Sequence record: OR352955.1
Origin: Escherichia phage AV125
Length of the DNA stretch: 64,000 nt
Reading direction: 5' to 3' (one strand)
The translations under genes were made by a program, and so were the position numbers. Positions 5,872 through 31,600 of the stretch are shown piece after piece. The notes under the pieces are model-generated. The model ran no database searches. It had not been told where the DNA came from and saw only the letters and a list, made by a program, of their open reading frames with translations. Positions within the stretch are counted from its first letter, which is position 1. Every line of letters starts with the position of its first letter.

Positions 5872-6231
5872 TTAACCTAAACACATACGTGCGATCAGAC
5901 CCTGGATGAGTTTATCTGCTTCTTCCCGATCATAGTCGGTATCTTCTATACCACCATCTTCGTCACGATAAACTTTACCTTCCAGGTACCCAGCATCGAT
6001 CAAACCAATAATCAAATCGAACTGCCAGCAAGAGTTACCGAAAGGGCGTTTTCCACTGAAACTATCTTCTTCCCAAAGTGTAGAGAGCAGTCGTCTGAAA
6101 TATTCACGCACAGTAACAGTGCCAAGATCATCGTCTTCAAAAACAACATCTAAAGCATCTGGTTCAGCTTTCTCTACAACAGGCACATAACGTTGACCAT
6201 TAATAACAACATCTACGATTGTTTCTCTCAT
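5872..6231 (-). CDS. hypothetical protein (119 aa)
   Basis: ORF track. Confidence 0.55.
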   Translation of the reverse strand: MRETIVDVVINGQRYVPVVEKAEPDALDVVFEDDDLGTVTVREYFRRLLSTLWEEDSFSGKRPFGNSCWQFDLIIGLIDAGYLEGKVYRDEDGGIEDTDYDREEADKLIQGLIARMCLG

Positions 6232-6590
6232 TTTTCCTCCTTTTTGTATTCAATGAACATATCTGCATAGTAAGCTTTACGTTCTTCAAATTTAGCAGGG
6301 TTTACCACAATGAACAACACCTTTCTATTGTCTTGTGGTTCTTTGACTGTAATATATAAATCTTTTGTGCAATAGAAACCTGTGGCTTTGTAAGCGTCAC
6401 CCCAATTATCCACTCCACGATCTATACGATCAAACTTGCAGTTATACTTTTTATCATCCACCTGGTAGACAGCTTCACCACCATACCAAGTGAAGAATTG
6501 GCTACCTTCCACCCCAATCTTGAAACCATCACGGGCGGCTGTAGCATTGGTGGCAATCATCAACATCAGGACACAAAGTAGCCTTTTCAT
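6228..6590 (-). CDS. predicted secreted/periplasmic protein (signal peptide)
   Basis: N-terminus MKRLLCVLMLMIATNATAA is signal-peptide-like; ATGA overlap with downstream gene. Confidence 0.55.
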   Translation of the reverse strand: MKRLLCVLMLMIATNATAARDGFKIGVEGSQFFTWYGGEAVYQVDDKKYNCKFDRIDRGVDNWGDAYKATGFYCTKDLYITVKEPQDNRKVLFIVVNPAKFEERKAYYADMFIEYKKEEK

Positions 6591-6896
6591 TTAGAATTCC
6601 TCTTCAGTCTTCTGTCGGTTTTTGAAGAATACTACGTCATATACCTCTCCGTAACCATCATTTACACAGAACATAATAAAACGATCATCTTCTGCTGTTG
6701 GTGCGCGATGTTCAAGTTCAAAACTTTCAATAAAACCTCGTGAATTTACGTAGTAGATTTCATCCTCACCAGAGAACATCCAATCCCTGTCTATCAGATA
6801 GAAAGCTAAACTCACAGGCAACAACTCATCCTTCACAGAATCATTGTACAGCATGTGGGCTGCAACTGCCAAGCTTAAAGTCGGATTATACAACAT
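6591..6896 (-). CDS. hypothetical protein, paralog of 6896..7123
   Basis: 101 aa; shares FIMxFVNxGxGExxxVVFxK motif with adjacent ORF. Confidence 0.5.
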   Translation of the reverse strand: MLYNPTLSLAVAAHMLYNDSVKDELLPVSLAFYLIDRDWMFSGEDEIYYVNSRGFIESFELEHRAPTAEDDRFIMFCVNDGYGEVYDVVFFKNRQKTEEEF

Positions 6897-16265: not shown

Positions 16266-16450
16266 TTACAAAAGTGAAAGTTGAAAACCAAAATTTAAAG
16301 TTTAGGAAAATTATCTTAAAATGTCAGATACAAAACAAAACTCAAAAGTCAAGGAAAATTTTAAAAATTTTGCGCGCCCACAGTATTTAAAGTTTTTTTG
16401 CTTTTACAAAAATGAAAGTACAAAAGCAAAATTTAAAGTTTACAAAAATT
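16266..16450. repeat. AT-rich direct repeats (iteron-like), 2 full copies of ~48 bp plus partial copy
   Basis: TTTACAAAAgTGAAAGT...CAAAATTTAAAGTTTAggAAAATT at 16266-16313 and 16403-16450; partial AAAGTCAAGGAAAATTTT at 16346-16364. Confidence 0.6.
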
Positions 16451-16465
16451 TTTATGCAGGTGAAA

Positions 16466-16580
16466 ATGAGAAGAGTTCTCATATGGAAATGCAAATGATA
16501 ATGATTCGCATTTAAGTTTATAAATGAGATTGATTCTTATTTAATAAGGTAAATGACAATCATTCTCATTTAGAGAATGA
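16466..16580. promoter_or_regulatory. cluster of operator-like inverted repeats built on half-site ATGAGAA/TTCTCAT
   Basis: ATGAGAA-gag-TTCTCAT (16466-16482); 27-bp near-palindrome AAATGCAAATGATAATGATTCGCATTT (16487-16513); CATTCTC-attta-GAGAATG (16561-16579). Confidence 0.5.
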
Positions 16581-16799
16581 CGCGCAGGGGCGGTGTTTGT
16601 CTCGCGCTCCCGTGTCCCCTCGCCATGTAATAAGAATAACAGATCCAGCCAGGAAAGCAAGCGATTATTTTATCTTTACATTTCTTTACAAATATATAGC
16701 ACCCAGCCTACCGGCGATCAACCTTCCAACCAGTGCCCCCTGGTATGTTAGCCCCGCCTTTACGCCGTGGGGTGGCGCTTCCTCTTCTGTATGTAAAAC

Positions 16800-23838: not shown

Positions 23839-24009
23839 ATGATCCCGACTATGTTTTATGTATCGCGCAAAGGTCACAATATTTTTTGGTCTGAAGATTT
23901 AAATGAAGCTATGACGTTTGCCCGTGATCGTGTTGCTATCGGTGGCGTTAACATCACCGTAACCGATGAAAATGGCATTGAATACTATAACGGCAACGAT
24001 GAAGAATAA
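23839..24009 (+). CDS. small early protein (56 aa)
   Basis: Start ATG 23839 (MIPTMFYVSRKGHNIFW...); track start 23755 lies in promoter. Confidence 0.45.
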   Translation: MIPTMFYVSRKGHNIFWSEDLNEAMTFARDRVAIGGVNITVTDENGIEYYNGNDEE

Positions 24010-24015
24010 TTAATG

Positions 24016-24038
24016 AGGCGGGGGAGTATTCCCCGCCG
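24016..24038 (+). promoter_or_regulatory. intercistronic leader stem-loop with no promoter upstream
   Basis: GGCGGGGGA-gtat-TCCCCGCC immediately before RBS of 24057 gene. Confidence 0.5.
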
Positions 24039-24056
24039 TCAATAAAGAGGTAAATC

Positions 24057-24326
24057 ATGAAAATATCATTGGACGTTGCAATCAAGGCCATCGAATCCGG
24101 TTACATCCTGGTAAAAGATGATAAGGCTAAAACCGTGCACCACGTTAACAAAGAAACAGGCGAAAGCATGATCACATATAAAGCCGCCTACTTTCTCCAA
24201 TCAGTAGCAGATCCGCGCGTACAACGCCAGGTTACAGCGGCTATTGCTAAAAAATTATGTGCTTTACAGGGTATAAGTTTTAACGAGATCGCCCCGTGTT
24301 TTGACTGGTCGAGCTTGAAAAAATAG
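24057..24326 (+). CDS. small early protein (89 aa)
   Basis: ORF track. Confidence 0.5.
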   Translation: MKISLDVAIKAIESGYILVKDDKAKTVHHVNKETGESMITYKAAYFLQSVADPRVQRQVTAAIAKKLCALQGISFNEIAPCFDWSSLKK

Positions 24327-24327
24327 T

Positions 24328-24389
24328 TTGACAACAATTATAAATCGGGTAGAATGTATTTCGTAGGGCGGGGCAATAAGGCAACGCCC
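24328..24389 (+). promoter_or_regulatory. early promoter + variant leader stem-loop cassette 19
   Basis: TTGACA 24328; TAGAAT 24350; hairpin GGGCG...CGCCC. Confidence 0.5.
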
Positions 24390-24407
24390 ATTAATGAGGG
24401 TAGAATC

Positions 24408-24512
24408 ATGTTAGAGAAAATTTTCACGGTTGTAATAGTGGGCCTGGCGTTATCGGTTGGAGGGGTTGCAACTATGGCTAACATGATCCTATCTTCCCAC
24501 GGTATCGGCTAA
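24408..24512 (+). CDS. tiny membrane peptide (34 aa)
   Basis: Own translation MLEKIFTVVIVGLALSVGGVATMANMILSSHGIG. Confidence 0.3.
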   Translation: MLEKIFTVVIVGLALSVGGVATMANMILSSHGIG

Positions 24513-24522
24513 GGTGAAACAA

Positions 24523-24738
24523 ATGATCACGAATAAGACAGGTAAAACGGAATTTTTACGCGGCTTGCAAGTTGGTAAACCTGAGATCTGGCATTGTACT
24601 AAATCCGCGCATAATGAAATGAAAGATTTTACCGCTACTTTACAACGTGTTAAAATATCTATCACACAGAAAAAAGCCTTGTTAGTAGTAGAAAACGAGA
24701 TCCCGCAAACTATTATTATTGTCGAGCGTACAGCATGA
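24523..24738 (+). CDS. small early protein (71 aa)
   Basis: Track ORF 24514 (GTG) shortened to ATG 24523 after AAGGTG. Confidence 0.45.
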   Translation: MITNKTGKTEFLRGLQVGKPEIWHCTKSAHNEMKDFTATLQRVKISITQKKALLVVENEIPQTIIIVERTA

Positions 24739-25121
24739 AAACAGAAATCATTATTGAAATCATCAACGGTTATAAAGAAGCCTTTATTTTTGCTGAATCA
24801 GCAAGGGATCATGAAGGTAATTTTATTGAAAACTTAGACGATTATGATTTTTCTCCTAGCGCGGACGAACGGATCGCCCAGGATGTAACAGCCTTTATTA
24901 ATGCTAATCTTGCCGCTATCTCTGAGGCAATGAGCGACGGCGCAACAGCCAACCAGATCGGGAATGATTTACATTTTACCCGTAACGGTCACGGCGTAGG
25001 CTTTTGGGATCGCCCTGAAATATACACCACTAACACGGCGAACCGCCTAACCAATGCAGCTAAGTTTATGCCGAACGTGTCGGCTTACATTGGTGAAGAT
25101 AATTTGATTTATATTGAATAA
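24735..25121 (+). CDS. small early protein (128 aa)
   Basis: ATGA overlap with upstream gene. Confidence 0.55.
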   Translation: MKTEIIIEIINGYKEAFIFAESARDHEGNFIENLDDYDFSPSADERIAQDVTAFINANLAAISEAMSDGATANQIGNDLHFTRNGHGVGFWDRPEIYTTNTANRLTNAAKFMPNVSAYIGEDNLIYIE

Positions 25122-25127
25122 AAAGTA

Positions 25128-25183
25128 TTGACACAGATCGCCAGTGTGCTAATATTTACCACGTAGGGCGGCAATGGTGCCGC
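25128..25183 (+). promoter_or_regulatory. early promoter + leader stem-loop cassette 20
   Basis: TTGACA 25128; TAATAT 25150; hairpin GGGCGGCAATGGTGCCGCC. Confidence 0.55.
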
Positions 25184-25202
25184 CGATAATGAGGAAAGTA
25201 AA

Positions 25203-25502
25203 ATGGAAACTATCGCTATTGTTACCGTAGAAAAACTGGTTGTTGGTGATGTATTCGCGTTAATGGTGCCTAACAGCAGCAAGCTGGGCGCTTATGAAGT
25301 AATGGATCATAAAAATGAATCATTTGGCGACGGTTGCACAATGGCGGTAAAATCTTTAAAGGATGGAATCATCCGCCAGGCTAACTGGCACAAAGGGAAT
25401 CAAGTCGGTTTAATATCAGCTAATTTCTTGCCAGAAGAGCAAACGTTAGACCAACTATCAGGCGGTAAGACGTTAGCCGAACTACTGGAAACAGCGATCT
25501 AA
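25203..25502 (+). CDS. small early protein (99 aa)
   Basis: ORF track. Confidence 0.55.
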   Translation: METIAIVTVEKLVVGDVFALMVPNSSKLGAYEVMDHKNESFGDGCTMAVKSLKDGIIRQANWHKGNQVGLISANFLPEEQTLDQLSGGKTLAELLETAI

Positions 25503-25510
25503 TCAACAAA

Positions 25511-25526
25511 GGGGCGGCAACGCCCC
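25511..25526 (+). promoter_or_regulatory. intercistronic GNRA-type stem-loop
   Basis: GGGGCG-gcaa-CGCCCC, no T-run; precedes RBS of 25547 gene. Confidence 0.45.
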
Positions 25527-25546
25527 ACATCAGAAAGGAAAAGATT

Positions 25547-25783
25547 ATGAGTATTGCAACAGTATTAAACGCCGTTAAAACCGCTGAATCATCCGGCTTG
25601 CATGTTGAGCTTATAGATCAACCAGGTGGCGATCTCCTTGTCCAGGTTTACCCGCCGAAAGTAGGGGATGATTATTATTGGGCTTATTCTGATACGTTCG
25701 AACAAGTAGACACGAAAGCGATCACGGCTTTTATTTTAAAAGCTATTGAAGAAAATAACTTTCATCATAACATCAATCAATAA
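25547..25783 (+). CDS. small early protein (78 aa)
   Basis: ORF track. Confidence 0.5.
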   Translation: MSIATVLNAVKTAESSGLHVELIDQPGGDLLVQVYPPKVGDDYYWAYSDTFEQVDTKAITAFILKAIEENNFHHNINQ

Positions 25784-25792
25784 ACCATAAGC

Positions 25793-25808
25793 GGGGCGGT
25801 AACGCCCC
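25793..25808 (+). promoter_or_regulatory. intercistronic GNRA-type stem-loop
   Basis: GGGGCG-gtaa-CGCCCC, no T-run; precedes 25838 gene. Confidence 0.45.
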
Positions 25809-25837
25809 ATTAAACGCAATAGGAAGAGGATAGACGC

Positions 25838-26128
25838 ATGAAAAAGATGATCGCAGTAGTTGCCCTGGTTGTTGGTATTAACGCGCCTGTACTGGCTAAT
25901 GAGTTGCCAGAATCCATCACGCTAACCGATATCAACGCAATAAACCGGATCGGCGTTAATTATCGCCTATGCCTTGCCGCTAAAACTTTCCAGGACGGCA
26001 CGACAGAATACCACGGATTCGAGGGTATCCGCTGCGGTGAGCTTGCACGCGACCTTAAGGAAGATCCAGACCTTGAGGCCATACCGATGACCGTAAACGG
26101 TAAAGCTTACGTAAACCGCCAACAATGA
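25838..26128 (+). CDS. predicted secreted protein (96 aa)
   Basis: Signal-peptide-like MKKMIAVVALVVGINAPVLA. Confidence 0.55.
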   Translation: MKKMIAVVALVVGINAPVLANELPESITLTDINAINRIGVNYRLCLAAKTFQDGTTEYHGFEGIRCGELARDLKEDPDLEAIPMTVNGKAYVNRQQ

Positions 26129-26259
26129 GAAAGGTAATCATCACAATGGGGATCATAGTAGCGACACTGGCGCTTATCCCCTTCATGGTTGAATATGTGC
26201 TGATCAGTGTTGTCCTGGTAGTCAGTGACCTATTGGAAACGGTTGGCAACTGGTTTTAA
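26125..26259 (+). CDS. tiny membrane peptide (44 aa)
   Basis: Own translation MRKVIITMGIIVATLALIPFMVEYVLISVVLVVSDLLETVGNWF; ATGA overlap. Confidence 0.35.
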   Translation: MRKVIITMGIIVATLALIPFMVEYVLISVVLVVSDLLETVGNWF

Positions 26260-26436
26260 AAATAAGAAAAACAGGACTTGTTTTTGTTCTGTTTTTTGTT
26301 ATACTTATTGAACGGGCGGCACCTGGAAGCAGGGGAAGATAATCACCGGAAGACCCCGCTATATATTGATAACTAACGCCTATCAAACAACAAAACATCA
26401 AAGGAATAAACTATCAAATCTTTACAATTCTACCTA

Positions 26437-26480
26437 TTGACACCGGATCACGCTTACACTATTATTTATCACGTAGGGCA
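26437..26480 (+). promoter_or_regulatory. early promoter with conserved leader start but no stem-loop (cassette 21)
   Basis: TTGACA 26437; TATTAT 26460; TATCACGTAGGGC leader. Confidence 0.5.
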
Positions 26481-26511
26481 AACAATTTTAAACGGTAAAC
26501 GAGGAATCACC

Positions 26512-26895
26512 ATGAGCAATATCATCAACCTGGCAGCGACTGTAAACGGTAAAGACTTTAACGGCGCTGTAGACCGTGATCCTATGTGGTGCTTGTCAGT
26601 GTTTAAAGGCGATCTGGTTGAAGTTAGAACAACCGAAGGTTATAGCGATGATTATAAATGCGAGATTCATTTACATAATTGGTACACGGGTAAAACTTAT
26701 GCGCTGAATCACGCGTTTATCGGGAAAATTGAATATCGCGAGATGATCGACGATGAAACGGGGCAAGATTTTAGCGAAAACGTTTATATTCGTTCCGAGA
26801 CATTAGCCGAACGTTTGATCGAGAAAATGAAAGCAAAAAATAAAATTAATTTATCTCATTGGATTGATATAACAAATGATCCGGCTTATCAGTAA
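26512..26895 (+). CDS. hypothetical protein (127 aa)
   Basis: Start moved to ATG 26512 after GAGGAA; track start 26437 is the TTG of the -35 box. Confidence 0.55.
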   Translation: MSNIINLAATVNGKDFNGAVDRDPMWCLSVFKGDLVEVRTTEGYSDDYKCEIHLHNWYTGKTYALNHAFIGKIEYREMIDDETGQDFSENVYIRSETLAERLIEKMKAKNKINLSHWIDITNDPAYQ

Positions 26896-26911
26896 ATAAC
26901 ATTTCATACCA

Positions 26912-26937
26912 GGGCGCATCAAGCGCCCTTTCTTTTT
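26912..26937 (+). terminator. intrinsic terminator (copy 2 of repeated terminator)
   Basis: GGGCGC-atcaa-GCGCCC then TTTCTTTTT, identical to 22001-22026. Confidence 0.65.
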
Positions 26938-26999
26938 GCCCGAATAATGTTGATAGCTTTCGCCTATGAAAAACCGACACAGAACAAAACTGAATAAAT

Positions 27000-27420
27000 C
27001 ACGGTATCGAGCTAATCGACCATTAAACGAATAACCATACATCCCAGGGCAACAGGCTGTTAGAGAGCTATTTAGAGCGGTTAAAATCGATCAACAACCA
27101 ACAACAAACCATCAAAAACACCCTTTTACCTCTTTTCTAGTGCAATGATAACCATTATCATCTATCATTGATTATCTATTCAATATAAGTGCATAACTAT
27201 AATGTTGATAATAGTTCGCAACAACTAACCAACAAACAACATAAAACAATAAGCAAACTAATCATAATCAAAGGAATAATAGCAAGATGACTGATAACGA
27301 CAAACAATCAAACCATGATGAATATTAAACAAGATAACGATAACACGACAAAACAACCAACTAACGAACAATAACAAACGAAACCATTAAAAGATCAACT
27401 ATTAGCAAAATAGTGTATAT
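27000..27420. other. noncoding A/C-rich tract, strongly G- and T-depleted on plus strand
   Basis: Long runs such as aaccaacaaacaacataaaacaataagcaaactaatcataatc; no ORF on either strand. Confidence 0.6.
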
Positions 27421-27505
27421 TGCCATAATAGTGACTGAATGAAATCATTACAAAACGAATCATTCCAAGGATCATCATTAGCACGCTACGCCGGACACGT
27501 AGCGA

Positions 27506-27633
27506 GCTAATAATAAGCCAACTACACCCCAACAATCATAACCATCGGTGATGGTTATTTCTTGTTACTGCGTAGCTTGCAATAATTGCAAGCGTAATGA
27601 CGCTTACACTTATTGCGCTGGCTTATTATTAGC
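27506..27633. repeat. 128-bp element bounded by perfect 15-bp inverted repeats, with nested palindromes
   Basis: GCTAATAATAAGCCA (27506-27520) vs TGGCTTATTATTAGC (27619-27633); inside: ATAACCATC-ggt-GATGGTTAT (27538-27558), TTGCAAT-a-ATTGCAA (27577-27591), AAGCGT-aatg-ACGCTT. Confidence 0.6.
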
Positions 27634-28091
27634 ATTATATGTAATTACTAAGATCATAACATTAGCGCAATAACAATAATCATTGTAATAGTTACAAGAT
27701 GAGATCATTAGCAAGATGAATAATTGCACGTAGCAACATGAGCGAATAGCGACAGGTTGCATAGTGTGCACATAGTGTATAAACATACAAGAAAATAAAG
27801 GCTAATCTTTTGGGGGCGAATACTATCGCTACGCGATATGTTGAGCACCTTCTCTTAAACGTAAATAAAATCAGAATAATCTTGATTTATTTTAGTTTTT
27901 ATGTTAATAAACGTTTAAATAATAATCATTCTCATATAAATAATAGTCTGCTTGTCATGAGCGGGATCAGTTGACAATGTTCCGTCATATGATGAAGTTG
28001 CCAAACCATTGATAAATAAGTGTTTGTGTGATTTATAATCAAGTGGCCCACCTTGTCGCTACGTTGGTATGAGCCTTGCATAAGTCATTGA

Positions 28092-28120
28092 ATACGAATG
28101 ATAATTATTCTCATTCGTAT
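28092..28120. promoter_or_regulatory. operator-like inverted repeat sharing the ATGAGAA/TTCTCAT half-site
   Basis: ATACGAATGA-taattattc-TCATTCGTAT; related AATCATTCTCAT at 27924-27935. Confidence 0.45.
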
Positions 28121-28456
28121 GATATTTGGGAATTGTCGCTGCGTGGACCTGACGGCCCGAAAATTCGCGTTAAGCACTTCTTACGTATGCGCCATGATTT
28201 TTGCCATATGATATTGATTCTATTAGATATTCTTGCCATGATTGCCATGAAACAGGGTGTCCCGAAATAATCTCTCCCCGTAGATATTTTGGGTTACTTT
28301 TTATACAAGAGTGGGGTGTCAAAAATAATCGGTATATATAGGATAATTGATAGGAATCCCCTATGATAATTCGATTGTAATTCCCTAAGATTGATCGTAT
28401 GATGTTGGTGATTGATGATTGCCATGAAAGATGGCTAACGATGAGAGGAGATTGTC

Positions 28457-28801
28457 ATGCAAGAGAGTAAAAATGTTCCGTTGAGTAGTTTACGTCTAAT
28501 GAAGTTTTACAAAGCTTGGCTTGCTGGTGAGGTAGAAGGTCACACAACGAGTGGTTTGTGCATATGTTTGATTAAGTATGTAGAGGGAACATACCCTGAT
28601 GAACTGTTACCTCGTCTACAACAAGAGATGAAATCACAGTTTATTGGTGCAGGATTGGATTACAATTTCCCGTTTAATGAAGGTGGTTATGAGGAATACA
28701 CCTTTGAACATAAAAAACATATTTGCCATAAAAACAAACATCGTATACAATGGGTGCTAGATAGAATTCAAGATTATGAAGGAGAGAAAGATGACAAATA
28801 G
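28457..28801 (+). CDS. paralog family A member 1 (114 aa)
   Basis: FYKAWL..GLC..L....EM..QF..AGLDYNFPFN...RIQWV.DRI family signature. Confidence 0.6.
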   Translation: MQESKNVPLSSLRLMKFYKAWLAGEVEGHTTSGLCICLIKYVEGTYPDELLPRLQQEMKSQFIGAGLDYNFPFNEGGYEEYTFEHKKHICHKNKHRIQWVLDRIQDYEGEKDDK

Positions 28802-29159
28802 TATTCCGTTGAGCAGTGCAACATTGCTTCGCTTCTATAAAGCATGGATTGCCAACTATCCTGCAATGAATCGCACAACGAGTGGCTTATGTGGTTGTCT
28901 GGTAGACTATGTAGATGATTTTGTTGGTGATACACCTAGAGAAGAAGATAGAAAATGGCGTGATCATTTGTTGGACCGTTTGAAATATGAAATGAGGAAA
29001 CAATTTACATGTGCAGGACTGGACTACAATCTTCCGTTCAATGCAGATTGCATGGATTACCTTTCAGAGTGTATAAACTTGGCGTGTCATACCAACACGT
29101 TACGTCTTCAGTGGGTGAAAGATCGGATTGAAGATGCAAATAATGCTTGCATTGAATAA
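28791..29159 (+). CDS. paralog family A member 2 (122 aa)
   Basis: Start ATG 28791 after AAGGAGAG; FYKAWI..GLCGCL..EMRKQF..AGLDYNLPFN..RLQWVKDRI. Confidence 0.6.
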   Translation: MTNSIPLSSATLLRFYKAWIANYPAMNRTTSGLCGCLVDYVDDFVGDTPREEDRKWRDHLLDRLKYEMRKQFTCAGLDYNLPFNADCMDYLSECINLACHTNTLRLQWVKDRIEDANNACIE

Positions 29160-29208
29160 AGATGTTTGTATAATGGATGACATAACAGATAGCCAATGAG
29201 GAGATGAA

Positions 29209-29418
29209 ATGAAGAATTTGAAAACTGTCACAATGTTCTTGACTGATCCTACACGTGTGCAAGCACTGGCTAAAGCCAGCCGTGTAGCTGTAGAATTCCA
29301 AAACTTTAAGCCGTCCGTTGTGACAGGCAGTGAAACGTGTGTTATCGATTTCATTAACGAATACTTCCGAGGGAATCCGGTTGGTCGTTACTTTATTAAG
29401 GGTCTGAAGGATGCATAA
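29209..29418 (+). CDS. hypothetical protein (69 aa)
   Basis: ORF track; GAGGAG upstream. Confidence 0.5.
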   Translation: MKNLKTVTMFLTDPTRVQALAKASRVAVEFQNFKPSVVTGSETCVIDFINEYFRGNPVGRYFIKGLKDA

Positions 29419-29641
29419 CATGAAACGCATGAAAATTCGTATTGAGAATGATGGTGGTTATAAAGGATTGGCACATGCAAAATTTCCACTTGTGTTGGAA
29501 GCTACTGTGGAATACAGTGGGCTTGCTCATGTGCGATTCTCGAAGATGATGGAAGTGCAGGAATGGTTTTGGGACGAGATAGATGCACGAGAAGGGGAAG
29601 ATTATGTTTTCTTTCCTCACGAATATGAAATTGTCTATTAA
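29411..29641 (+). CDS. hypothetical protein (76 aa)
   Basis: ORF track. Confidence 0.5.
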   Translation: MHNMKRMKIRIENDGGYKGLAHAKFPLVLEATVEYSGLAHVRFSKMMEVQEWFWDEIDAREGEDYVFFPHEYEIVY

Positions 29642-29653
29642 GGGTTGTGTGCA

Positions 29654-29893
29654 ATGATCACACCACAACAGAATGAAGCAGCAATGGATCTTCTCGATAG
29701 TTTGTATTTCGATAACTGGTACTCTGAATGTGAATGGATGAATATGCAAACTCTGAAAGAGAAGACAGAAGCGTTGATTACAGTAGATCAATTTCTTGCA
29801 GAGACGGAAAGAATGAATTATGATATGGCATCTCGCGCACGACGCGTTTCCATTTTCAATAAAATGTTAGCATTATGGGGAGGTAGAAAATGA
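29654..29893 (+). CDS. hypothetical protein (79 aa)
   Basis: Track ORF 29645 (TTG) shortened to ATG 29654. Confidence 0.45.
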   Translation: MITPQQNEAAMDLLDSLYFDNWYSECEWMNMQTLKEKTEALITVDQFLAETERMNYDMASRARRVSIFNKMLALWGGRK

Positions 29894-30351
29894 GACAACC
29901 ATCTATACTGGAAGCGCATGTGCAATGTGTTGTAGATTATGTCAAAGAACACTCAAGTTTATTAAATGTAACCTGTGCAGTGCAAAATGATGTAGGCATT
30001 GTCTGTGTGCAACATATCTTATCTGAAACTCGTTATGAAGTATTTCGTGCCACGTTGTTTGGATGTGATCGAGTGCATGTAAACTTCCTGGACTCCAATT
30101 ATCGTTATGCTTTAGAAAATATTGATGATTATCTTCCTTGCTCTCCGACAGGATATGTAATGGTAACAGCAAACGAAGTAACACCAAGCAACAGTGAACG
30201 GGAAGCTTTGTTACGGAAGAAAATACGCCAACTGAAAATGCTGATGGAAATGCAAGAAGAGATTGAAAAAGAACTGAAAGAAGATTTTGGTATGCTTCCA
30301 AAAGACGCTTTGAAATGGTATGATGAACTAGGAGGAGAGAGCAATGTTTAA
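29890..30351 (+). CDS. hypothetical protein (153 aa)
   Basis: ATGA overlap; GGAGGTAG upstream. Confidence 0.55.
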   Translation: MRQPSILEAHVQCVVDYVKEHSSLLNVTCAVQNDVGIVCVQHILSETRYEVFRATLFGCDRVHVNFLDSNYRYALENIDDYLPCSPTGYVMVTANEVTPSNSEREALLRKKIRQLKMLMEMQEEIEKELKEDFGMLPKDALKWYDELGGESNV

Positions 30352-30802
30352 AGAAGGTCATGTCTACCGTTTCCAGGATGAGGATTATATGCGACTATAT
30401 TCTACCTTTGATAACAGTATTGCGGCTATCATTGGAGAGAATTTTTTCGAGGTGTTGAGCACTGATGCAAATGGTAATATCTTGTCAATGGTTGTAATAG
30501 GTATGAGAGATGGTATTATCACTGCTGGTGATGGGGATCGTTACATAATCAATTCTGCTCATATAGATTATTTTGTTGACGGTGGTGTTCGTGGTGGTCG
30601 TGGAAAACCCCAAGAAGAACCTGTTGATACAACAAAAGAAGAGTGGTATGTTGTAATGACTGATGACACCTGTATTTCTGGATTTGAAAGTTATGAAGAA
30701 GCTTTGAAAGAAGCAGCAGAGCATAAAATGGCTAATCCTACAGAAGAGGTTGAAGTTTATAAACGTATGGTTGTTGCTACCATCGGTGTATCTTTTGTTT
30801 AA
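30344..30802 (+). CDS. paralog family B member 1 (152 aa)
   Basis: N-terminus MFKEGHVYRF; family MFK.G.VY.F...E...F; C-terminal EVYKRMVVATIGVSF. Confidence 0.55.
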   Translation: MFKEGHVYRFQDEDYMRLYSTFDNSIAAIIGENFFEVLSTDANGNILSMVVIGMRDGIITAGDGDRYIINSAHIDYFVDGGVRGGRGKPQEEPVDTTKEEWYVVMTDDTCISGFESYEEALKEAAEHKMANPTEEVEVYKRMVVATIGVSFV

Positions 30803-30814
30803 AAGGGGAATGTT

Positions 30815-31600
30815 ATGTTTAAAGTAGGTTTTGTTTATAATTTCAAATCGGAAGATACCAAAAAGAATTTTGGTAAAGCTAGTATTGGTAACGCTTTCTT
30901 TGTAGGTTGCATTCAAGATAGCAAGTTTAAAGTTTTGGATGTTGATTTTCTTGGTTCTGTATCTAAGGTGAAGGTATTAGACACAAATAAAATCATCGAA
31001 GCTGGTTCTGGGCTTTTCCCTGAAGGTTATAAGCTTGTAAGTTGTATGGATTATACTCGTTTTGAAGAACATACTCCTGAAGATTATGAAGATTCTCCTA
31101 CAGGAGGCTGTGTCTTTGTAGAAGGTGGTGTCTATAAGTTTGCAAGTGAACAAGATCGTAAGCTTTTCGCCAATTATATTGACGGCGGACAAACGACAAA
31201 CAATGTAAACCGAAAAATTTCCGATCTTATTGGCGATGATCCTTTCGTGATCACAAAGATGGTTGGACAAGATGTAACAGCAATCCGTAGGCTTGTATGT
31301 AATACAAATCATGTAGCAGGTGAAGGCTGGTTCAAGGAAGCTTGTGCGCTGCTAATCAAAAGCGATAACCCTTATTTTAAAAATATTAAAGATGTTGTTG
31401 AGCCTAAACAAGAGGAATCCGCAGCGAATTTTAAACACTATGCTATTGTTAAAGGTATGAATGTCCAACTGGTGTCACATTCTTACGAAGAGATCGCCAC
31501 AGAAGCAAAAAAGATGAAAGAAGAATACCCAATTTCTACTGTTGAGATCTATGAGCGTATTGGTGTTGTTAGTATTGAGCCTACTGCGGTAATAAAATAA
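30815..31600 (+). CDS. paralog family B member 2 (261 aa)
   Basis: MFKVGFVYNFKSED; C-terminal EIYERIGVVSIEPT resembles member 1. Confidence 0.6.
   Translation: MFKVGFVYNFKSEDTKKNFGKASIGNAFFVGCIQDSKFKVLDVDFLGSVSKVKVLDTNKIIEAGSGLFPEGYKLVSCMDYTRFEEHTPEDYEDSPTGGCVFVEGGVYKFASEQDRKLFANYIDGGQTTNNVNRKISDLIGDDPFVITKMVGQDVTAIRRLVCNTNHVAGEGWFKEACALLIKSDNPYFKNIKDVVEPKQEESAANFKHYAIVKGMNVQLVSHSYEEIATEAKKMKEEYPISTVEIYERIGVVSIEPTAVIK

Follow-up and report, generated by a model that had tools for sequence, protein, structure and literature searches.

A probable genome-end junction in Escherichia phage AV125 with a shared putative cut-site motif, Fur-type boxes, and a conserved minus-strand fold

The 1.5 kb region at positions 26938-28456 of Escherichia phage AV125 (sequence record OR352955.1) was studied within a window of 64,000 nucleotides, the term window being used for this whole stretch of DNA. 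The region is almost certainly the junction of the two physical ends of the genome, as brought together in a concatemer or by a collapsed assembly. From left to right, it comprises the unique arm of the right end (26931-27843), a direct terminal repeat (DTR) of 329 bp (27844-28172), and the leader of the first early gene (28173-28456). The arm contains a structured element of 163 nt on the minus strand, and both the arm and the repeat contain boxes that resemble binding sites of the host iron regulator Fur. The full explanation, which combines the genome-end junction, a cut motif, the Fur-type boxes, and the minus-strand element, has a probability of roughly 0.7. An earlier note, made from the letters of the sequence, had given an account of the region without genome ends, and its main identity was missed.

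The terminal repeat was located from the record ends of relatives. Phage Schickermooser (MK373788) has an identical 329 bp at both ends of its record, and this repeat maps to 27844-28172 of AV125 at 96.4% identity. Mt1B1_P17 (MT496970), from a different laboratory, has an identical 328 bp at both ends that maps to 27844-28171, and KKP 3954 (OR067838) has a terminal repeat of 309 bp that maps to 27855-28163. The records of Schickermooser, Mt1B1_P17, 3A1, and 118_SA_NWU start at the homolog of 27844. The records of BI-EHEC and WPEC1/2 end at 28171, and those of Schickermooser and Mt1B1_P17 at 28171/2. The boundaries are fixed and reproducible in independent isolates, including VEcB of another genus. 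In the AV125 assembly, which is collapsed, the repeat is present as a single copy. The repeat is already known for the genus, though it is unannotated in most records: Korf et al. described a 328 bp terminal repeat in phage Schickermooser (PMC6563267), and a terminal repeat has also been published in PMC12695924. Genomes of this group are best annotated and oriented from 27844.

The two boundaries of the repeat share one motif. The left cut-site motif, GTTG^AGCAC (27840-27848, plus strand, with ^ marking the cut), was placed from the record starts of the relatives, and the virion left end would run from 27844. The right cut-site motif, GTTA^AGCAC (28169-28177, plus strand), has the same cut position, and the virion right end would be 28172. 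At the left boundary ATGTTG is followed by AGCACCTTCT, and at the right boundary GCGTTA is followed by AGCAC-TTCT. Exact copies of GTTRAGCAC occur twice in the 64 kb, both at the repeat boundaries, 329 bp apart and with the identical cut position. In ten genomes of at least four lineages, TGTTGAGC at the left site is invariant, and CGCGTTAAGCAC at the right site is invariant or nearly so across genera. The record of VEcB, a Justusliebigvirus, ends with TTTGTTG and starts with AGCC, which is the homologous site with TGTTG before the cut and AGCC after it. With the right-hand motif of VEcB, its repeat would measure about 343 bp. The same motif with the same cut position at both boundaries suggests one sequence-specific nuclease activity, presumably the terminase. 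The terminase or an associated nuclease would recognise GTTR^AGCAC at both boundaries, and the intervening 329 bp would be duplicated, so that each virion has the repeat at both ends as in T7. As far as the searches reach, the shared cut-site motif appears to be new. The recognition, cutting, and duplication of short exact terminal repeats are poorly understood outside T7. The region offers three testable handles in widespread coliphages that are candidates for therapy, namely the cut motif, the folded element, and the Fur-type arrays.

The terminal repeats of T7 and T3 have a length of 160-230 bp. The AV125 ends resemble them in the short exact repeat at both virion ends, 329 bp here, and in the cutting at fixed sequences. 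The small early genes just inside the left end, and the non-coding arm with inverted repeats before the right-hand repeat, are likewise in line with T7 and T3. In contrast, the present phage is a 150 kb myovirus, a 9 bp motif with an identical cut position marks both boundaries, the arm has a covarying strand-specific fold of 163 nt, and the repeat has host Fur-type boxes. To our knowledge, neither a shared 9 bp motif, nor a strand-specific fold, nor Fur boxes have been described for T7, and we know of no single-subunit RNA polymerase in this phage group.

The region is truly non-coding. The earlier note had called it free of open reading frames (ORFs), and this is borne out: the longest ORF in 26938-28456 encodes 64 aa, and each of the eight longest ORFs is broken by frameshifts or stops in no fewer than two of the five relatives compared. 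These eight ORFs, the frames in which missed translation was looked for, gave no match in PHROGs and Pfam. Hidden coding is ruled out by the missing matches together with the broken frames. In the carefully annotated records of phAPEC8, ESCO13, and Schickermooser, the interval from the terminator of the last small gene to the next gene is blank. One pipeline-annotated record places seven tiny reverse-strand ORFs in the gap. The window belongs to a Phapecoctavirus genome (phAPEC8-like, Stephanstirmvirinae): the region matches more than 60 records of phAPEC8-like coliphages at 90-97% identity, and KKP 3954 is 99.6% identical to its left part. Over the non-coding region, identities of 93-97% are also found for entries with other labels, namely Campylobacter phage B15/C3, Pseudomonas phage PsgM04F, Acinetobacter phage ABPW7, and "Dompiswa phage". 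Judged by this identity, their host labels are probably unreliable, or they represent contaminating coliphages.

The 163 nt element (27474-27636, minus strand) was recognised by covariation in 18 sequences. On the minus strand it has a closing stem of 14-15 bp, a three-way junction with two arms, and a 3' hairpin (27484-27504). Its core is a 128 bp unit that the earlier note had described as bounded by perfect inverted repeats of 15 bp. These repeats (27506-27520 and 27619-27633) are 100% complementary, and the nested palindromes of the unit are also present as a hairpin at 27538-27558 and arms at 27579-27595 and 27600-27616. A search for extra copies of the 15 bp repeats and of the 128 bp unit found none in the window beyond the two arms, and one place in each relative. 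A covariance model found one copy of the element in the 64 kb window, at 188 bits, and none in loci that share a mere chance seed. Related genomes have one place for the element each, apart from duplicated record ends. Within the 1.5 kb, 27474-27633 is the best conserved block in distant relatives, with 74-82% identity.

The alignment covers at least six lineages with 18 distinct sequences, which come from Phapecoctavirus, the Wec179/190 group, Justusliebigvirus, two Klebsiella phages, one Citrobacter phage, and four IMG/VR contigs. The element has the same syntenic place in all 18 sequences, and no empty site was found. In the closing stem, AAGCCA/TGGCTT is changed to AACGCA/TGCGTT, ACCGCA/TGCGGT, or AACACA/TGTGTT, and an A-T pair is swapped to T-A. 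The first hairpin has compensatory changes like those of the closing stem. Together, these two helices are Watson-Crick paired in 396 of 396 cells. On the plus strand, 95.7% of the cells are paired, and the mismatches consist of 20 A·C cells and a single G·T. An A·C on the plus strand corresponds to a G·U on the minus strand. RNAalifold predicted 51 pairs for the minus strand. Three of them are invariantly G·U, and seven alternate between G·U and Watson-Crick pairing. On this strand 99.9% of 912 cells are paired, compared with 92.5% in shuffles (0 of 500 as high), and 13 pairs are altered on both sides. Covariation on the minus strand is 0.232, versus 0.099 in shuffles (0 of 500) and 0.019-0.047 for slid controls. 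The folding energy is -78.2 kcal/mol (z = -9.7) for the minus strand and -62.3 kcal/mol (z = -7.3) for the plus strand. A selected structure on the minus strand is very probable, and this is the one strand on which the pairing is complete. The earlier proposal of a cruciform-forming origin is weakened by the strand asymmetry of 99.9% versus 95.7% paired cells, since this points to a single folded strand and not to a symmetric double-stranded cruciform.

Lineage-specific insertions occur in the terminal loop of the long arm. Justusliebigvirus has an inserted perfect hairpin, CAATATAC-CATG-GTATATTG, and KP2025 has another one, TGATGTAT-GTG-ATACATCA. Such insertions are the variable stem extension that is usual in structured RNAs. 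The sequences ATTAGC, GCTAAT, and ATTAGC are found at 27477-27482, 27506-27511, and 27628-27633, and the 5' arm of the closing stem can be paired instead with the stretch that lies 5' of the first hairpin. This alternative pairing of 27477-27482 with 27506-27511 is Watson-Crick in 107 of 108 cells and excludes the closing stem. The two pairings are mutually exclusive, which makes a conformational switch possible; all positions of the switch are invariant, so covariation cannot judge it. On the plus strand, the second hairpin and TTCTTGTT (27538-27567) score as a weak intrinsic terminator, as they do in arall and Wec179. The same bases form a covarying arm on the minus strand, and the terminator call is therefore seen as a by-product.

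Searches for known relatives of the element were negative. Rfam 15, including the phage packaging RNA (pRNA), gave no match on either strand of 24000-31000 at E values up to 1. Scans of IMG/VR with invariant signatures found just four Stephanstirmvirinae-like contigs plus chance seeds. A scan of bacterial genomes gave 14 matches, about the chance number, none of them with the element. A hammerhead-like core and CRISPR-repeat mimicry were looked for by eye, and neither was seen. Within the genomes and databases searched, the element is confined to the subfamily, and the covarying minus-strand element appears to be new as far as these searches reach. Klebsiella phage KB57 (Vequintavirinae) has a non-coding gap of about 900 bp (locus 5956-6849) with a full-length reverse-strand match of 13 bits, which has many broken pairs and no 3' hairpin. 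This match may be a very divergent counterpart or noise.

The shape of the element resembles that of the phi29 pRNA. Domain I of this pRNA has about 120 nt with paired 5' and 3' ends and a three-way junction, and is followed by a separate 3' hairpin domain (PMC6765105). In the AV125 element, a stem of 14-15 bp closes a 128 nt domain with a three-way junction, a 3' hairpin comes next, and the whole lies near a genome end. In contrast, the element has no Rfam match, and no complementary loop pair for ring formation was found in it. The genome ends of phi29 are protein-primed, with no terminase cutting. The resemblance is one of shape alone. Single-strand initiation signals of the G4 type and the phiX type, and origins of the ssoA type, are strand-specific multi-hairpin folds of about 100-200 nt that act in one orientation. 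By description, the element is similar to them in its strand-specific multi-hairpin fold. It differs in that those signals belong to single-stranded or rolling-circle replicons, whereas the G·U-rich conservation found here favours RNA.

The element is most likely a non-coding RNA of the minus strand; the conserved G·U pairs of the modelled fold tip the balance modestly towards RNA rather than DNA. It would act as a folded single strand, probably as RNA transcribed leftwards from the right-hand copy of the repeat. It would most likely serve DNA transactions specific to the genome end (the start of packaging, duplication of the repeat, or priming) and not act as a trans-acting regulator. A role tied to the terminus is suggested by the fixed place of the element beside it: in all genera the element lies 208-334 bp left of the left boundary of the repeat, and about 210 bp in AV125. 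A terminus-related function is nevertheless a tentative proposal, with the odds somewhat against it. A stronger proposal has a low probability. It would make the element a new class of three-way-junction RNA of about 165 nt at the Stephanstirmvirinae terminus. Acting in cis, or together with the terminase or the replisome, this RNA would take part in the transactions at the DNA end and be a functional counterpart of the phi29 pRNA in a phage that uses a terminase, and the genome ends would be wired to host iron status through the Fur boxes of the repeat. The element merits an entry as an RNA family once its expression is shown.

The Fur-type boxes connect the region with a second site at 16.5 kb. 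The earlier note had linked the two places by the half-site ATGAGAA/TTCTCAT. The heptamer alone is at chance level in the window (18 found, 14.4 expected), whereas the full 19 bp palindrome, AATGAnAATnATTnTCATT, has 11 strand-matches against 0.28 expected, and it is this palindrome that ties the region to 16.5 kb. Its six loci are 27144, 27918, and 28097, and a tandem trio at 16494, 16523, and 16552. The suggestion that the same operator-like motif flanks the gene arrays thus holds, with a motif that is now of the Fur-box type. The palindromes that had been reported at 27924 and 28092 are present, and both sit inside the 329 bp repeat, which had been overlooked. The box in the right-end arm (27144-27162), AATGATAACCATTATCATC, has 15 of 19 positions of the Fur consensus. 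The first box in the repeat (27918-27936), AATAATAATCATTCTCATA, was found by the palindrome scan and in relatives. The second (28097-28115), AATGATAATTATTCTCATT, is the centre of the palindrome 28092-28120 and was found by the palindrome scan and a matrix. Each genus carries two boxes within the repeat and a further one or two in the right-end arm. Homologs of the 27144 box occur in all genera, and in Justusliebigvirus and the Klebsiella phages they are pairs 58 bp apart.

Outside the region, four Fur-type boxes with a spacing of about 29-30 bp (16464-16570) lie at the head of the right-end small-gene array. The fourth box, at 16464, has a spacer of 3 nt and was recognised by eye. The boxes at 16491 and 16549 have 14-15 of 19 positions of the Fur consensus. 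This array is located within an ORF-poor region that extends from 16022 to about 17200. Within this region, the part at 16270-16600 contains two direct repeats of about 37 nt (about 16276-16312 and 16414-16450; GAAAGTnnAAAAnCAAAATTTAAAGTTTAnnAAAATT), followed by a promoter-like site, TTTACA-17-GAAAAT, that abuts the four boxes. A G+C-rich segment (16580-16625) comes after the boxes.

The Fur consensus is GATAATGATAATCATTATC, a 19 bp palindrome with the 7-1-7 core TGATAATnATTATCA (PMC11353095). A scan of the window with the classical 19-mer gave no match with three or fewer mismatches and no site with at least 16 of 19 positions. A scan with the relaxed core TGAnAATnATTnTCA showed that the window boxes have at most one mismatch over its 12 specified positions. 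Position 4 of the half-site is relaxed in the window (T, G, or C), and is often G or C, as in TGAGAAT and TGACAAT. The link to Fur came from the relatives and a matrix test, and not from the consensus scan of the window. The Justusliebigvirus homolog of the 27918 box, GCAAATGATAATCATTATC, has 17 of 19 positions of the consensus and the exact core TGATAATCATTATCA. A symmetrised matrix was built from 15 distinct phage boxes alone (consensus AATGATAATCATTATCATT) and scanned on 45 kb of E. coli K-12 (600000-645000). Its four best matches were in the fepB/entC (ranks 1 and 4), fepA/fes, and fepD/entS intergenic regions, which together make up about 1.6% of the scanned 45 kb. These regions are classical Fur-controlled divergent promoters. 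The top ranking of Fur-controlled promoters by a phage-only matrix argues for Fur specificity, and with good confidence the sequences can be read as having Fur-type specificity.

The E. coli operators at fepA-fes, fepB-entC, and fepD-entS have the 19 bp palindrome, the 7-1-7 core, and multiple adjacent boxes in common with the phage sites. In contrast, the phage boxes lie in the terminal repeat and the non-coding arms of a virulent phage and not upstream of iron genes, and position 4 of their half-site is relaxed. In the literature searched on Fur boxes in phages, such boxes were found solely upstream of the sitABCD cargo operon of temperate lambdoid coliphages (PMC6969025). Those phages also carry a host Fur box in their genome, but there it is a single box that governs a bacterial-type iron/manganese transporter moron, whereas AV125 has arrays at the genome ends and at the head of a small-gene array. 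As far as the searches reach, Fur-type boxes in the repeat and at the heads of terminal gene arrays seem to be new. Iron-loaded Fur would bind the boxes of the region and the four-box array at 16.5 kb, and this binding would couple transcription of the terminal region to host iron status, or titrate Fur. A sigma-70-like site that reads leftward (28132 to 28104) places its -10 hexamer within the 28097 box. In arall, leftward promoter-like sites have their -10 in both repeat boxes; Wec179 and KP2025 have none, and the overall frequency is that of chance. These boxes may mean that a virulent phage senses the iron state of its host, or else that it titrates the host's iron regulator. If so, the link would matter for how such phages behave in the iron-limited gut and for their use in therapy.

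The part of the right-end arm left of the element (26931-27473, plus strand) comprises a G-poor and A+C-rich tract, with its core at 27219-27400, as judged by composition. The earlier note had described 27000-27420 as almost free of G and T, which is overstated: its composition is A 45%, C 21%, G 12%, and T 22%, so that G+T is 34%. The skew itself is real. With 77% A+C, 27219-27400 is the maximum of the window and lies about 5.5 standard deviations above the mean (mean 0.50, standard deviation 0.049; next highest 0.64). In the arm, the GC skew falls to -0.38 and the AT skew rises to +0.53. Depletion of G on the plus strand (8-14% G), with C above G, is common to all genera, and the strong A+C excess is a feature of Phapecoctavirus. 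The segment 26900-27261 is about 70% conserved in Justusliebigvirus.

The element allows other readings than a minus-strand RNA. The earlier note had compared the 128 bp unit to a miniature inverted-repeat element. The perfect 15 bp terminal inverted repeats agree with such a mobile element, but the window and each related genome have a single copy, no target-site duplication is seen in the flanks (GCGA and ATTA), and every lineage has the unit at the same place with no empty site. The arms covary by compensatory changes, which means that the inverted repeats are kept as a stem, and a mobile origin can be practically dismissed. The element could also be folded single-stranded DNA of the minus strand, for instance a signal for priming or primosome assembly on the template of the lagging strand at a leftward fork. 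The region would then be an origin, and the element would be comparable to the initiation signals of the G4 type or phiX type in small phages and plasmids. The element folds strongly on the minus strand with DNA parameters (-48.6 kcal/mol, z = -10.1), it sits within the largest non-coding region of the genome beside the strongly skewed tract, and a promoter or terminator for an RNA was not found. Against this, three invariant G·U pairs and many Watson-Crick/G·U switches are more typical of RNA, since G·T is destabilising in DNA. The strand left exposed by resection or by incomplete replication at the right end would be the plus strand and not the minus strand. Among origin features, the AT-rich skewed tract is present, short repeats are at chance level, and no iteron array was detectable, with eight matches of ATCATTAGCA against 6.7 expected. 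The iteron idea was rejected as ATCATTAGCA and TTGCCATGAAA repeats are not enriched and a tandem-repeat finder gives trivial arrays alone. An R-loop origin driven by leftward transcription, judged by eye, is unlikely because the leftward RNA would be U-rich (56% U). Single-stranded DNA as the acting form is considered rather unlikely. A third possibility is a DNA-level site for packaging recognition that forms a hairpin for duplication of the repeat. The processing of T7 and T3 concatemers involves a pac region and a proposed hairpin intermediate just left of the right-hand repeat. The constant position of the element in the right-end arm before the left boundary of the repeat in all genera, and its being the best conserved part of the arm, are in line with such a site. 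End generation in DTR phages is also acknowledged to be poorly understood (PMC13595956). On the other hand, the element lies at a variable distance from the cut site (208 to 334 bp), and a double-stranded site needs no compensatory changes between arms about 100 nt apart and would show no strand asymmetry. This role is improbable.

For the tract and the boxes, one compatible and one competing reading were considered. The tract could chiefly be a Rho-utilisation site that stops read-through of the 26911 terminator before the early region, which is compatible with the genome-end explanation. The G-poor tract with C over G would make rightward read-through RNA a good Rho substrate. A Rho-utilisation site is expected to be a C-rich and G-poor stretch of untranslated RNA with a length of at least about 80 nt. 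The tract is untranslated, its plus-strand RNA would be G-poor (9-12% G) with C above G over several hundred nt in all genera, and it comes directly after an intrinsic terminator. Conversely, the argument is one of composition alone, C is just 17-22% and A is dominant, the strong A+C bias is specific to Phapecoctavirus, and the tract includes a conserved Fur-type box and a T-rich interruption (27120-27215). A Rho site as its chief function is possible, at less than even odds. The palindromes could also serve a dimeric repressor encoded by the phage, as operators through which early transcription is timed or shut off, with a convergent likeness to Fur boxes. The frequent G or C at position 4 of the half-site, where Fur boxes have T, is consistent with this, and boxes head both terminal small-gene arrays with a regular four-box spacing of 29-30 bp that fits a cooperative dedicated regulator. 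Yet Fur itself binds extended arrays (PMC11353095), the phage-only matrix recovers three Fur-controlled promoters as its four best matches in 45 kb, and the exact Fur core occurs in Justusliebigvirus. The same motif moreover recurs in phages whose hosts (Escherichia, Klebsiella, and Citrobacter) have a common Fur specificity. Binding by a phage repressor in place of Fur has a small likelihood.

Several points weigh against the full explanation. The termini come from the records of relatives, while AV125 is an assembled window with one collapsed copy of the repeat. The minus-strand structure was predicted and counted on one and the same alignment, and the strand call comes from about ten G·U-bearing pairs that are phylogenetically non-independent. 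G·T is tolerated in folded single-stranded DNA, and the element folds well as modelled DNA. A search for minus-strand promoters in four genomes gave no conserved sigma-70 site right of the element, with counts at chance, and no terminator was found after the element on the minus strand. The literature search found no phage transcriptome for Stephanstirmvirinae; the RNA-seq papers that name the subfamily sequenced no phage transcripts. The window boxes reach just 14-15 of 19 positions of the Fur consensus, no Fur-type box clearly overlaps a strong promoter, and a phage-encoded dimeric regulator of similar specificity may be the binder.

On its left side, the region is preceded by the terminator that the earlier note had placed at the end of the early array. 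It is an intrinsic terminator (26911-26929, plus strand) with a 7-pair stem (6 G-C) followed by TTCTTTTT, which closes the right-end small-gene array, and the same site is annotated in phAPEC8 and Schickermooser. On the right side, the leader of the first early gene (28173-28456, plus strand) has sigma-70-like sites at 28242-28271 (TTGCCA-18-AATAAT, 10 of 12 positions) and at 28375-28403 (TTGTAA-17-TATGAT). The latter recurs at the homologous place in the Justusliebigvirus arall. The first early gene starts at 28457.

Small repeats are found on both sides of the junction. A direct repeat of 28 nt with 75% identity, TTGATAGnnnnnCCCTATGAnAAnnCGA, occurs after the terminator (26950-26977) and before the conserved early promoter (28347-28374), and ATTGATAG at the latter site is invariant across genera. 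In the leader, TTGCCATGA is a perfect tandem pair, and ATGATTGCCATGAAA is found again 25 nt before the first start codon (28233-28250 and 28415-28434). The TGTCATGAAA/TGCCATGAAA motif has the same leader place in other genera and is not enriched in the window as a whole. The last gene before the right genome end (26437-26895) has homologs with about 40-44% identity in hundreds of T4-like phages, and in some T4-like records the homolog is named 30.8.

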